A stretch of DNA of 57,485 nt from Bacteriovorax sp. UBA1852 (GTDB taxonomy: Bacteria; Bdellovibrionota; Bacteriovoracia; Bacteriovoracales; Bacteriovoracaceae), in NCBI GenBank assembly GCA_002338505.1, contig DDIK01000173.1, positions 1 through 57,485 of the forward strand. The letters are read 5' to 3'. Position numbers and translations under genes: made by a program. This document shows positions 25,430-30,564 of the stretch, piece after piece. Position 1 is the stretch's first letter. Every line of letters starts with the position of its first letter. The notes under the pieces are model-generated. The model was not told the origin of the DNA, did not search any database, and saw nothing but the letters and a program-made list of their open reading frames with translations.

Positions 25430-25432
25430 TTT

Positions 25433-25500
25433 AAAAAGCCTTCTTAATTTGATCTGTACCCCGAAAATGGGACTGATTAATTGAAGGCTTTTTTATTTTC
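25433..25500. repeat. Junction hairpin copy 0 (tRNA terminator), interrupted by a 27-bp insert
   Basis: AAAAAGCCTTC-TTAATT-[27 bp]-TTAATT-GAAGGCTTTTTTATTTTC. Confidence 0.8.
25450..25476 (+). mobile_element. Solo IS3-family-like terminal repeat remnant
   Basis: TGATCTGTACCCCGAAAATGGGACTGA resembles IS150/IS861-type ends (recalled pattern TGAACTGCACCCC); flanked by duplicated TTAATT. Confidence 0.5.
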
Positions 25501-26136
25501 ATCGTAAATCAAATCAACAACTTCTCCTAGGATTTCATCATATGACTTTTCATCTATATTGAACCTAAGGACTCTAAAAGGGCATTCTTCAAGAACATCC
25601 TCTGTATTTAAAACTAGCTCTTCTATGAAGAACTTAATTGGTTCGTCAATTTTCTTGTCTTTAAGAAGCGCTGATGTACTTAGTGTACCTCTCACCTGCT
25701 GCTCCCATTCAGTACCTCTACTTTTCATTGTCTTCTCAAAATGAGCTACAGGGTTACTACTATACAAATAAATTAGAACAGGATTAACTCTTTCAATTTT
25801 TTTAAAAATCTCATTAATAAGAGATTTCCCTTTCTCCACTTTATTAATAACTAAAGGAAAGTTCATTTGTTGCTGAATAGTTAAACTTTCTTGAATATAA
25901 ATATGATCTTTATAGCTTTCATTTTTTAGAAATGTGCACCAAGCATTAAGTACAAAATTAGAAAAATCCTCTATGTTCGAATCTATAGTTGTTCCAGTTT
26001 TATATATGAATGGATTATCTTCATCGGTCTCAAGAAACAGTCTAACTTTACATTTTCCCTCTAAAGCTCGCACCAAATTCTTAGCAAAAGTACTTTTTCC
26101 CGTACCAGGTAATCCCTCAATCAATATCATAACCAT
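25477..26136 (-). CDS. P-loop kinase/NTPase, nucleoside or nucleotide kinase-like
   Basis: IEGLPGTGKST Walker A. Confidence 0.75.
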   Translation of the reverse strand: MVMILIEGLPGTGKSTFAKNLVRALEGKCKVRLFLETDEDNPFIYKTGTTIDSNIEDFSNFVLNAWCTFLKNESYKDHIYIQESLTIQQQMNFPLVINKVEKGKSLINEIFKKIERVNPVLIYLYSSNPVAHFEKTMKSRGTEWEQQVRGTLSTSALLKDKKIDEPIKFFIEELVLNTEDVLEECPFRVLRFNIDEKSYDEILGEVVDLIYDENKKAFN

Positions 26137-26227
26137 AACCTATTTTTTTTCCTCACAACATTATTCCAAGTTCACAACTCATTGAAAACTCATTTCTATA
26201 ACTCAAAATATACAGATGAATATCACT

Positions 26228-26288
26228 GAGGAAGAATAGTTCGCGTAAGCACAGAATGAACCACTATTTTGCATTGAACGAACTTTTG
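26228..26288. repeat. Conserved hairpin leader, copy 1
   Basis: AGGAAGAATAGTTCGCGTAAGCA..GAATGAACCACTA..CGAACT, homologous to 29574-29634. Confidence 0.8.
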
Positions 26289-26402
26289 TTCCTCAATGCT
26301 TGAAAAGCCTCCTTCTCAGGGAGCATTTTTGATTTAATTTAAAAATATCTCTTAATCATTCCAAGCAAAACCTGAACCTAATTCATAAAGTTGATATCTC
26401 TT

Positions 26403-26421
26403 TTAGTTAAAATTTAACTAA
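26403..26421. promoter_or_regulatory. Palindromic operator-like site next to the Rha RBS
   Basis: TTAGTTAA-AAT-TTAACTAA; degenerate copy at 29720-29738. Confidence 0.55.
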
Positions 26422-26429
26422 GGATAATT

Positions 26430-26726
26430 ATGAATAATTTTAGAATTGATAAACCTTTTGATAAGAAACCACCAAGACTCAAAGACTTTGTTAATAAAGT
26501 AGTTATCGGTGATGTTTGGGTACGCGATACTCCATTTGGCCAGTGACAGGCTCATTCAAAACTGCAGAGCATTTTGATATGCCACACTTCCACGTAATAA
26601 GAGTTATTGATGAATGTAAAAATGAGTTATCTATTCAATCCAAATTTGGACTATGCCTTAAGCGAAAATCAAATAGGAGCACTAAAAGGTTACTATAGAA
26701 AGAGAATGGATGATAAAAATAAATAG
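26430..26726 (+). pseudogene. Rha-family protein pseudogene, copy 1
   Basis: MNNFRIDKPFDKKPPRLKD aligns with the 29748 gene; 1-bp deletion near 26540; large internal deletion near 26655; tail LKGYYRK retained. Confidence 0.9.
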
Positions 26727-26755
26727 CCTTCTTAATTGGAAGCTGTTTATTTCTA
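26722..26755. repeat. Junction hairpin copy 1
   Basis: AATAGCCTTC-TTAATT-GGAAGCTGTTTATTTCTA. Confidence 0.75.
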
Positions 26756-26775
26756 TTTTTTATATCGATAGTAAA

Positions 26776-27663
26776 CTACTTCAAAATACCTCGAACACAC
26801 ATTTCCAAAGTTTTATAACGAGATGGTAAAGAGCGGTTCTTTTTTTGTACCAAAAACAAATCCTCTGACACCGACCGTTTTGGATTATGTATAATATAGG
26901 ACTTCTTTTTTCCGAAACTATCTAAAGCAGACTGAGGAAGAATCGTAAACCCCAGCCCCTTAGATACTGATAATGGTATTTGTGCAAGTTGATTTACATG
27001 ACTAACTATAGAAATATCATCAATATTTAAAGACTTTAAATCAGAACTACCACACTGATCAAAATATAAAGACAAATACATTTTAGCATCGGGATGATTT
27101 ACTAATCCACATTCTTTTAAAAGCTCTGCCGTCACTTTCCTTCCTGTGTAATGGCGGGGAAGAATTAAACATAAAGACTCATTGCCAACTTTTTTATATC
27201 CAAAATTGCTTCTATTTGGAACCTCAGTAACTACACCAAAATCTATTGCTCCACTTTCTATATTTTCTAAAATTTTATAATTTGGAGCAGCCTCTAAGTG
27301 GACTACAAACCCTGAATGCTTTTTTTGTAAATCTAAAATTTGAGAATAAAGCTTCAATGCCAAAGAGCCTGAGCATGATAGACGGCAATGTCCCCTGAAA
27401 GGATCGTCAAATCTTAAGTTATCAAGTAATGATTCTTCTTCCTGCGAGTGCCTCAATGCATATTCATAGACAAGTCTTCCCTTTTCGGTCAACACAAACC
27501 TCTTCCCCTCCCTAACAATCAATTCGTGCCCACAAGCATCTTCCAACTTCAATATATGCTGACTAACTCCCGGTTGAGTCATATGAAGTACTTTAGCGGT
27601 ACGTGTAAAGTGACCAACTTCAACTAAAGTCTTAAAGGTCTTAAGCCATTGATTATTAAGCAT
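26776..27663 (-). CDS. LysR-family regulator
   Basis: GHFTRTAKVLHMTQPGVSQHILKLE HTH, 295 aa. Confidence 0.95.
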   Translation of the reverse strand: MLNNQWLKTFKTLVEVGHFTRTAKVLHMTQPGVSQHILKLEDACGHELIVREGKRFVLTEKGRLVYEYALRHSQEEESLLDNLRFDDPFRGHCRLSCSGSLALKLYSQILDLQKKHSGFVVHLEAAPNYKILENIESGAIDFGVVTEVPNRSNFGYKKVGNESLCLILPRHYTGRKVTAELLKECGLVNHPDAKMYLSLYFDQCGSSDLKSLNIDDISIVSHVNQLAQIPLSVSKGLGFTILPQSALDSFGKKKSYIIHNPKRSVSEDLFLVQKKNRSLPSRYKTLEMCVRGILK

Positions 27664-28856: not shown

Positions 28857-28873
28857 TCAATTTTAAATATAAT

Positions 28874-29380
28874 TTACTCGTTTTTCAAAATTAGCTTTTT
28901 CAATGAGGTAACATCATTAACAGAACCAAAAACTTCAATTACTACAAGCTCATTTACCTTTGTAATTTTTGTATAAAACGTTGAAGAGCCTGAAGAGGTT
29001 TTACTTTTAATCTCATAAACCGTTTCGCCATTTTCAATCGTTTCAGCACACATTAGAACTGACTTATTGTATCTTGAATGACTAGACAATATATACTGAT
29101 CTATAAGTTCAGGCCAAGTTGGATCTACATGGCTAAAAAGATCAACCTTCAATCCCAACTCTATTTGCAGTGGAACAGTCGTTATAACTACTTTAGAAAT
29201 ATTTTTATAAGTGTCCTCTTCCGAATAACAAGAGAAACCATTTTGTCTTTCACCTTCACACACATACTCAGAGACTTCATAAAACCCAGAAAATATTCCT
29301 TTATTAAAATGCTTACAGTCATCAGCTGCAATTGAATTCATTGACAAACCTAGCAGCATAACTAAAAGTGCTTGTTTCAT
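28874..29380 (-). CDS. Secreted hypothetical protein
   Basis: 168 aa, signal peptide, AAGGAG RBS. Confidence 0.7.
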   Translation of the reverse strand: MKQALLVMLLGLSMNSIAADDCKHFNKGIFSGFYEVSEYVCEGERQNGFSCYSEEDTYKNISKVVITTVPLQIELGLKVDLFSHVDPTWPELIDQYILSSHSRYNKSVLMCAETIENGETVYEIKSKTSSGSSTFYTKITKVNELVVIEVFGSVNDVTSLKKLILKNE

Positions 29381-29397
29381 ATGTAGTCTCCTTATTA

Positions 29398-29469
29398 TCG
29401 CAAATTACCAAATAAAATGAAAACTACACGTAATTGTCGCCAATTACCAAATAATTTGAAAAAGTACAC
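29398..29469. repeat. Imperfect direct repeat, 2 x about 32 bp, period 39
   Basis: TCGCAAATTACCAAATAAAATGAAAACTACAC and TCGCCAATTACCAAATAATTTGAAAAAGTACAC. Confidence 0.8.
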
Positions 29470-29573
29470 CTATATTTTCATAGCCATAACTGAGAATGTC
29501 CCCTCACTAACTTTTCTCACACTTATAAGTAATCAAAATAAGAAAAAGAAGAATCATTTTAGTAACTACCAGT

Positions 29574-29634
29574 AAGGAAGAAAAGTTCGCATAAGCAACT
29601 GAATGGACCACTAGTTTTCCAATAAGCGAACTAT
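29574..29634. repeat. Conserved hairpin leader, copy 2
   Basis: AGTTCGCATA...TAAGCGAACT inverted arms, homologous to 26228-26288. Confidence 0.8.
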
Positions 29635-29747
29635 CGCCCACTTGGTTACACAAATAAGAACTAACTTAACACCATTACTCCAAAGCCATACCTCTTCATT
29701 TATAAAACTGATACCTCACTTAGTTAATATTCAACCAAGGGATAATT

Positions 29748-30218
29748 ATGAGTGACTTCAAAATAGATAAACCTTTTGATAAAAGACCACCAAGACTCAA
29801 AGATCTTGTTAATGAAGTAGTTATGGGTGATGTTTGGGTACGAGATACTCCATTTGGCCCAGTGACAGATTCATTAAAAATTGCAGAGTATTTTGATATG
29901 AAACATCACAATGTTCTTAGAGCTATTGATAAATGTAATAAAGAGTTAGGTACAGAACTCAAATTTGAGTTGTGTAAGAATCTTATTGAAAACAATCACT
30001 TATCGGGTCCCAAAAATAGAATGAGAAAGTATAGAAAAGTAGACATTACTGAATTTGGACTGACACTACTTCTGTTATACATCAACACACCTAAAGCAAG
30101 AAAGATATCTGCTGAAATTCTTTATCGATTTTTCATCTTAAAAACTTACGTTGAAGGACTCAATGAAAGACAAATTATTGTCCTTAAAGGATATTACAGA
30201 AAACAAATGAAGGAGTGA
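29748..30218 (+). CDS. Rha-family phage regulatory protein, intact copy 2
   Basis: TDSLKIAEYFDMKHHNVLRAID and ITEFGLTLLLL match the Rha pattern. Confidence 0.85.
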   Translation: MSDFKIDKPFDKRPPRLKDLVNEVVMGDVWVRDTPFGPVTDSLKIAEYFDMKHHNVLRAIDKCNKELGTELKFELCKNLIENNHLSGPKNRMRKYRKVDITEFGLTLLLLYINTPKARKISAEILYRFFILKTYVEGLNERQIIVLKGYYRKQMKE

Positions 30219-30222
30219 TTTC

Positions 30223-30256
30223 AAAGCCTTCTCGATTGAAGACTTTTTTGTTTCTA
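30223..30256. repeat. Junction hairpin copy 3
   Basis: AAAGCCTTC-TCGATT-GAAGACTTTTTTGTTTCTA. Confidence 0.75.
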
Positions 30257-30276
30257 TAAAGAAAAATCTAATAACA

Positions 30277-30564
30277 AAACCTCCAAGACCAAAGGACTTA
30301 GTAAATGAGTATGTAATGGGTGATGTATGGATTAGAGATACACCATTTGGTCCTCTCACAGACTCTCTTAAGATTGCTGAGCAATTCGATATGACTCATC
30401 CTCATCTTCTAAGAGCTATAGATAAATGTAAAGATGAGCTTGGAACAGAATCCAAATATGGATTATGTAGTAATCTTATTGAAAACAAGTACTTGTCTGG
30501 TCCAAAAGGACGAGAAAGAGAATATCGCTTTTTTATTTTAAAAAGCTACGTTCTTAGTTCCTAA
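30277..30564 (+). pseudogene. Rha-family partial copy 3
   Basis: KPPRPKDLVNEYVMGDVWIRDTPFGP; lacks N-terminus, has an internal deletion between two YR motifs, truncated 3' end. Confidence 0.88.

Follow-up and report, generated by a model that had tools for sequence, protein, structure and literature searches.

An integrase-free array behind tRNA-Met in Bacteriovorax sp. UBA1852 as a likely stack of recombinase-free derivatives of a large serine recombinase element

Introduction

How do small gene units come to be piled up behind a tRNA gene when the array that they form carries no integrase? The question is raised by a 57,485-nucleotide stretch of DNA from Bacteriovorax sp. UBA1852, referred to here as the window (contig DDIK01000173.1 of assembly GCA_002338505.1). 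In it a tRNA-Met(CAT) gene, at 25353–25429 on the forward strand and downstream of dapF, is followed by an array of repeated hairpins, conserved leader sequences, Rha genes and assorted cargo. The host is a marine, predatory member of the Bacteriovoracaceae, with a genome of 3.44 Mb at 35.5% GC that is 87.5% complete. Below, G-numbers denote coded genomes (G000 is the source genome), L-numbers coded loci and C-numbers contigs, the window being C35. An assembly artefact is excluded for the region, as contigs from public runs reproduce the array without differences from the window (25420–30320 in X2, 28201–31500 in X3 and X4), though these runs may be the source of the window DNA.

A first-pass annotation had described the locus as a tRNA-anchored, integrase-free and serially accreted array, and this is borne out: cargo turns over between relatives, and searches of the whole genome with hairpin patterns and nhmmer find the repeated hairpins, leaders and cargo to be real and confined to the locus. 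Its account of how the array was built, in which leader-operator-Rha-hairpin elements recombine at the TTAATT loop of the hairpin, gives way here to a different one. We consider it likely that small derivatives, devoid of recombinase, are stacked at the locus, and that they stem from an integrative element that encodes a large serine recombinase (LSR) and targets the 3′ end of tRNA-Met(CAT).

Crossover site and order of arrival

Where tRNA-proximal and leader-proximal DNA have a block in common, it begins exactly at CCACCA, the last six bases of the tRNA (25424–25429 in the window), in 24 of 71 pairs, which are not mutually independent. Most of the other pairs start within 9 nt to the left of this core (mostly 5–9 nt), and many of the blocks stop just beyond the terminator. 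The block behind the tRNA in L303 occupies the position of second unit in both G071 and G254, and the same polarity is seen in L017 compared with L061 and in L306 compared with L279. The block that follows the first window leader (26267–26330) lies directly behind the tRNA in L175, L027 and L171, and in G004 the sequence that typically follows the empty tRNA in this genus is found after leader cores.

Because DNA that follows the tRNA in one place follows leader cores elsewhere, from the core onwards, we place the crossover at CCACCA and the entry of new units beside the tRNA. The comparisons show newer units adjoining the tRNA, with older ones displaced outward. A unit would then run from core to core, the leader closing the preceding unit and Rha opening the next. 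The first-pass annotation had set the crossover at TTAATT, and had held that breakpoints lying elsewhere than at the hairpin would speak against this; the blocks shared across relatives break at the CCACCA core, not at the hairpin.

Relationship of the leader to a large serine recombinase

The leader, ~190 bp long, contains a GTTCG box and three TGAGGAA boxes, and its final six bases repeat the CCACCA that closes the tRNA. Beyond the two window leaders, no further copy was found in the genome with nhmmer. Relatives have one to seven leaders behind the same tRNA-Met, with different cargo and mostly without Rha; six genomes of the same genus have no leader at tRNA-Met. In a search across genomes that scored three candidates per genome, all strong matches that could be placed sit in tRNA-Met arrays, some of them on short contigs without the tRNA. 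A metagenome scan added only three tRNA-type arrays, and the leader patterns had no match in viral contigs.

The origin of this sequence is suggested by other genomes, where an LSR of 524–577 aa lies behind the same tRNA, is transcribed toward it and ends inside it, with the terminator within its last codons. Such genes end inside tRNA-Met in G117, G033, G127, G065, G232, G217, G179, G132, L336, L339 and L340, and their products have Resolvase and Recombinase domains and, in most, a zinc ribbon. The two parts are seen together in L336, a 10,828-bp element at tRNA-Met with the LSR at one end and a member of the leader family at the far end (leader hidden Markov model, nhmmer E 2.6e-25). When the two ends are rejoined, a 649-aa open reading frame (ORF) results, in which the LSR continues into a helix-turn-helix (HTH) tail. 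The leaders of L017, L054 and L123 have minus-strand open frames running 128–130 codons from the core, with an HTH match and a weak Recombinase-domain match, and these share 48–58% identity with the tail of L336. Within the LSR tail the TGAGGAA boxes correspond to FL and VRK codons. For the window leaders themselves, pairwise DNA alignment with the coding tail was no better than with shuffles, so that their link with the LSR rests on the profile match and on better-preserved leaders such as L061.

Recombinase genes are lacking in the arrays. An LSR is absent from the window and from every leader array examined, and these arrays have no tyrosine recombinase either; the nearest of the latter is a broken gene in G006, at a distance of 9.6 kb from a leader. 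PF00239 was sought as a sign of a resident LSR that could help in trans, and none was found in the array-bearing genomes G109, G022, G025, G095, G135 and G129. An unsplit protein comprising LSR plus tail was not found in the protein database, which is a weak test.

Site geometry and proposed origin of the units

The arrangement of boxes about the core is that of a recombination site. Of 57 leaders, 42 have a GTTC box 18 nt to the left of the core (17 nt in leader 1), and at the far ends of LSR elements the distance is likewise 18 nt, whereas in the T-loop of the tRNA the box lies 13 nt to the left. In serine integrases the distal box is 5 bp nearer the centre in attB than in attP (PMC3783163), and the 18- and 13-nt spacers show this same attP/attB shift. 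To the right of the core, a P′ arm follows both window leaders with a spacer of 12–13 nt and is absent at the window tRNA. What had been annotated as a palindromic operator is in fact the two arms of this site, flanking the tRNA-3′-end core.

From these observations a course of events can be proposed. As the sequence of L336 shows, the parent element carries its attP inside the LSR gene, which integration at the CC of CCACCA splits. The LSR body then runs into the tRNA, its final codons containing the tRNA terminator, and the 3′ tail encoding the HTH is left at attR. Each unit of the array keeps no more than the two ends: toward the tRNA the P′ arm and the terminator, at the other end ~190 bp of decayed tail, and between them one to four cargo genes. 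Rha or ORF6N, both optional, often fill the slot behind the P′ terminator. Most likely, a cognate LSR from a passing element moved the units, in trans or as a composite.

That the array units are mobile at present we only infer, since the arrays have no recombinase and no circle was seen. The excised circles that the first-pass annotation proposed to look for were sought in four public contig sets, which drop rare forms, and the circular joint was not found; a joint of 25509 to 30256 in public contigs had the support of 21 letters and was not used.

Several points weigh against this account. The P′ arm is undetected after 35 of the 57 cores, and many arrays, including that in the window, have no P′ at the tRNA; where the arm is present, its spacer is mostly 13 nt, against a symmetric 14 in the LSR-bearing elements. 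As the P′ arms are absent or at 13 nt, canonical attP × attB insertion fails to explain every unit. L336 itself has a coding-tail attR, and its leader is ~50–54% identical to the window copies; among the LSR elements examined, none has an attR of the non-coding leader type. Finally, the only full LSR found in the source genome, which is 87.5% complete, lies on C183 and is 29–33% identical to the tRNA-Met LSRs.

This C183 gene (G000:C183:18956–20665; L162) encodes 570 aa, is 51% identical to a tmRNA-inserted LSR of G153 and ends at a tmRNA-3′-like remnant; the tmRNA gene is not on that contig. A second attR-type LSR tail, from an unrelated element family, lies at G000:C55:14400–14900, with HTH and Recombinase domain, an open frame and a CCACCA core. 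In G004, one ORF joins a C-terminal piece of an LSR to such a tail; at L203:154–801, the C-terminal coiled region of an LSR is in frame with the HTH tail and the att core is deleted. L261 (G179:C60:9000–12244) is a 3.1-kb element with only an LSR between tRNA-Met and its attR; it has another tail type, and ~17 kb downstream of it, on the adjoining contig, lies an array of seven leaders. An ORF of 2536 aa (L123:10348–17958) takes up most of a 10-kb recombinase-free unit that extends from the tRNA to an LSR-type attR.

The non-coding leader lineage

Leaders whose frame is broken number 50, both window copies included, from 19 genomes (six coded genera and one unplaced record). The distance from the left box to the core is 168 bp in 28 of the 42 measured, against 181 bp in 11 of 13 leaders of the coding type, and that from the middle box to the core is 92 bp against 104. 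Non-coding leaders show little codon-position pattern and have their left boundary in common; their best-conserved parts are the boxes, the core and the CATAAC repeats at the left end. In a tree, coding-type and non-coding leaders split with 100/100 support, which is partly circular as the two groups had been defined on an earlier tree, and for that reason the difference in length serves as the independent evidence for the split. For only 7 of 46 non-coding leaders does the nearest neighbour come from their own genome.

Among 49 ORFs beside the left end of a leader, 36 are oriented toward the tRNA, and for 13 the distance from the left box to the start is exactly 12 nt; on the cargo strand the left-box region appears to resemble a ribosome-binding site. 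The cargo consists of GNATs, HTH regulators and antitoxins, methyltransferases, HigB, ORF6N proteins and orphans. Near-identical small units are present in different species. Taken together, the comparisons suggest that one derived recombinase-free module has spread with changing cargo. Tentatively, one may go further and regard a single non-coding att module from the split LSR tail as a free-standing cassette vehicle, whose left end would supply a ribosome-binding site and start context and take up ORFs. It would be moved in trans among predatory genera by visiting LSR elements, with the tRNA 3′ end as entry and no resident enzyme, in the manner of an integron.

The most serious alternative is that every unit arrived as a full LSR element from which the recombinase was deleted once it had integrated, and that small units have never been mobile alone, as in classical accretion of cis-mobilizable elements (CIMEs). 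Decay followed by accretion is a documented route (PMC5704250), the P′ arms are of variable length and often absent, and LSR-less units with intact coding tails do lie beside the tRNA in G071, G176, G254 and G035. A parent whose tail was already non-coding may, moreover, simply be unsampled. Against this stand the lack of an LSR in all of the ~50 non-coding-type units, their single derived length and common left boundary, the identical start of 13 of the 49 cargo ORFs and the near-identical units in different species. We therefore think it somewhat unlikely that decay accounts for the array by itself.

Once placed by an LSR, units might also now be exchanged between strains by homologous recombination anchored on dapF–tRNA and on the leaders, with no site-specific step. 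Such exchange would account for units without P′ and for foreign terminators after the tRNA, and the dapF–tRNA flank is conserved; but the mean identity between leaders, only ~60–63%, is low for RecA, and the junctions are precise at CCACCA, so that we regard this as improbable.

Less probable still is that a chromosomal tyrosine recombinase acts on the leader, which would then be either the attP arm of a tyrosine integrase, with the TGAGGAA boxes in the role of arm-type sites, or an attC like those of integrons. The three direct or inverted boxes are nearly invariant among non-coding leaders, the CATAAC repeats recall attC core sites and every genome has several tyrosine recombinases. The boxes are nevertheless LSR-tail codons, the tRNA loci lack a tyrosine recombinase and the geometry fits a serine integrase; a role of the boxes as tyrosine-integrase arm sites was accordingly dropped.

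Two or three CATAAC copies are common at the left ends of leaders, where they add Met-Val to the N-termini of cargo proteins, and in L102:2025–2065 the hexamer is expanded to five tandem copies. Short GC-rich repeats with tRNA-3′-like pieces, unlike the leader family, occur behind the tRNA in L023:10490–10530, L038:9840–9900 and L203:1860–1930.

Hairpins and the IS3-family remnant

The hairpin family has four copies in the window, all read on the forward strand. Hairpin 1 (25433–25492), terminator-like, is split by 27 bp at 25450–25476, and no P′ arm lies between it and the tRNA core; hairpin 2 (26724–26744) is degenerate; hairpin 3 (28832–28849) is a right half only; and hairpin 4 (30223–30246) has a close variant directly after CCACCA in a related contig (loose end at 30239). 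In G006, of the same genus (L106), an uninterrupted hairpin stands behind the tRNA, with a P′ arm before it. With the patterns tried, no further convincing copy was found in the 3.4-Mb genome, and the hairpin is not the generic genome-wide terminator repeat that the first-pass annotation had allowed for as an alternative.

That annotation had mapped two rearrangements to TTAATT. Both do touch the loop, and each has a cause of its own. A 24-mer of the insert has multi-copy matches in 17 other genomes of the family, many at contig ends, with none for the reversed control, and it occurs exactly at insertion sequence (IS) ends in G179, G012 and G203. In L188 (135–1524), two inverted copies flank a 1390-bp element with an HTH OrfA, an rve OrfB and TG..CA ends. 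The insert is the terminal inverted repeat of an IS3-family element, of which a single end is left in the window. Because insertions of this element come after A-run/GCC terminator arms, it targets hairpin loops. The real IS end runs on into TTAAT, so that the apparent duplication around the insert is partly IS-derived; most simply, the remnant was trimmed through deletion at a short shared sequence. Palindrome-targeting IS3-family elements are known, among them the IS that target repetitive extragenic palindromes and IS1397. The 27-bp insert likewise sits in a terminator loop, with one end left; it is unrelated to the recombination of the array and uninformative on its crossover. IS3-family insertions in terminator loops occur elsewhere in the Bacteriovoracaceae (L185–L196), and L189 and L196 are short end-to-end remnants.

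The second rearrangement concerns higB, which lacks ~12 N-terminal codons, has its junction inside the hairpin loop and contains an internal stop; the truncation is probably a deletion at a short shared TTAAT. In L106, L114 and L181, higBA adjoins a leader. With both rearrangements explained in this way and the shared blocks beginning at CCACCA, the hairpin loop was ruled out as the crossover.

Rha genes

Rha has three copies in the window, a correction to the first-pass annotation, and only one of them is intact. With 535 proteins, and best matches mostly of 154–158 aa, it forms an abundant and tight family, and the records giving relatives belong to the Bacteriovoracaceae and Halobacteriovoraceae. 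With this query no relatives were found in viral contigs, and in the window there are no integrase, replication or packaging genes around Rha. Among 57 genes placed, 16 follow a leader, 8 directly follow the tRNA and 33 are near neither. Conversely, only ~16 of 64 leaders have Rha behind them; arrays of up to seven leaders (L093, L102, L106, L111 and L114) have none, and in L037, L171 and L181 ORF6N genes occupy its slot. By a loose pattern, this type of hairpin stands behind only 7 of 49 full Rha genes. Rha is a frequent passenger that apparently moves by other means too.

That Rha marks a non-autonomous leader-operator-Rha-hairpin element recombining at TTAATT is largely refuted and now barely credible: the hairpin does stand behind Rha in L037, L094 and L029 as well as in the window, two rearrangements touch the loop and Rha often follows a leader, but shared blocks begin at CCACCA, most leaders lack Rha, the insert is an IS3 end and terminators at this position are coded within LSR 3′ ends.

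Lone Rha genes encoding 156 aa, 65–76% identical, are found at numerous intergenic positions, unrelated to one another, in freshwater Bacteriovorax and Bdellovibrio genomes (L040–L075, for example L040, L044, L046, L049 and L055 around 10001–10468). About 100 nt upstream of them are conserved, with no conservation past the stop codon, and a recombinase is nearly always lacking nearby.

Organisation of the array in the window

The tRNA is the integration target, the same tRNA inside which the LSR genes of relatives end. Unit 1 would comprise its core, hairpin 1 with the IS scar, the gene for a P-loop kinase-like protein of 219 aa (25477–26136, minus strand), which starts at the left end of leader 1, and leader 1 itself (26117–26266, plus strand). 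Leader 1 is an attR-type site, a non-coding remnant of the LSR 3′ tail with an internal deletion and a core decayed to CCACTA (26261–26266).

Unit 2 would open with the P′ arm, made up of a CGAAC box and an inverted TGAGGAA box, and a terminator (26267–26330, plus strand). There follow Rha copy 1 (26430–26714, plus strand), a pseudogene with a frameshift near 26540 and about residues 77–136 missing, hairpin 2, and genes for a LysR regulator (26776–27663, minus strand), which has a homologue near the tRNA array of G135, a VOC/glyoxalase protein (27797–28312, plus strand) and the HigA antitoxin (28329–28589, minus strand), 94% identical to a cassette gene of L114. The higB remnant (28582–28836, minus strand) is cut at its 5′ end from the hairpin loop on. 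Hairpin 3 would be the junction of this deletion, which may have removed the start of higB together with the leader and core that closed unit 2.

Unit 3 would consist of the half hairpin, a gene for an orphan of 168 aa with a signal-peptide-like start (28874–29380, minus strand), which has no Pfam or PHROG match, and leader 2 (29471–29613, plus strand). The latter is likewise an attR-type site with an internal deletion, its GTTCG box 18 nt to the left of a CCACTA core (29608–29613). The P′ arm that follows (29614–29649, plus strand) resembles the last LSR codons read on the minus strand; with the intact Rha copy 2 (29748–30218, plus strand; 156 aa, PF09669) it would form unit 4, and hairpin 4 with Rha copy 3 (approximately 30256–30564, plus strand), truncated at both ends, unit 5. 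The kinase, LysR and orphan genes are oriented back toward the tRNA.

Two genes farther on, of 309 and 240 aa (35576–37245, minus strand), are 66–74% identical to cargo in relatives' arrays. They are probably older units whose leaders have been lost, and the array would thus extend to ~37 kb. With CCACTA in place of CCACCA at either core and internal deletions in the two leaders, the array in the source genome looks largely fossil; among further signs of decay, two of the three Rha genes and higB are broken, and the IS3 end and deletions have remodelled hairpins.

A scan for promoters and terminators gave a signal no higher than in shuffles. Just past the array lie an ORF of 103 aa (30538–30849) that looks like an N-terminal phosphotransferase fragment, without Pfam support, and a stand-alone LanC-like gene (31712–32899).

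Discussion

The general pattern is already known, and the closest systems are CIME accretion and the ssrA islands of Dehalococcoides. The latter lie in tandem at the 3′ end of a structural RNA, with DsiB, a serine recombinase of ~540 aa, on the reverse strand beside attL; the repeat is embedded in a dsiB homologue, and many islands have no integration module (McMurdie et al. 2011, PMC3146451). Whereas the islands use the T-loop of tmRNA and a 20-bp repeat, the array uses the last acceptor-stem pairs of tRNA-Met and a 6-bp core, and its units, of 1–3 kb, carry no such module and are each closed by what is left of a recombinase tail, non-coding but conserved.

In CIMEs, as described for the ICESt1/ICESt3 family, integrase and transfer genes are missing, att sites are kept and elements pile up at one target (PMC5704250). 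The array is alike in lacking integration and transfer genes and in its recognisable attL and attR, decayed though these are in the window; on the question of origin by which CIMEs are judged, both unit ends derive from an LSR gene, which would fit decay unit by unit as well as the spread of one derivative. The CIMEs reviewed are mainly tandems of integrative and conjugative or integrative and mobilizable elements, mostly with tyrosine integrases and individually decayed (PMC5704250), whereas here we find a serine recombinase, cassette-sized units and one lineage of att remnants across six genera.

The short core, symmetric distal boxes and 5-bp shift are shared with the att sites of serine integrases such as the A118/LI integrase (Rutherford et al. 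2013, PMC3783163). The tRNA-Met sites differ from these in that attP lies inside the recombinase gene, integration removes the HTH tail, the symmetry exceeds 25 bp and many units lack one half-site.

Integron arrays are made of small cassettes with GNAT, methyltransferase, toxin–antitoxin and orphan cargo, the newest nearest to a fixed site. Polarised addition at a fixed site and similar cargo are features of the present array also, but no IntI lies beside it, the fixed site is a tRNA, the delimiters are remnants of a recombinase gene and the cargo mostly faces the insertion site.

Literature searches turned up neither the locus nor LSR cassette arrays in Bdellovibrionota. What is gained specifically is a parent element that can be traced, a non-coding lineage that has been conserved and pairs of sites open to testing. 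The delimiters, in an array that has no integrase, are traced to both halves of a recombinase gene that its own integration splits. Should the small units move in trans, serine recombinases would run integron-like cassette systems, and the 6-bp tRNA core with its T-loop box would be a universal landing site worth trying for genome engineering in Bdellovibrionota.

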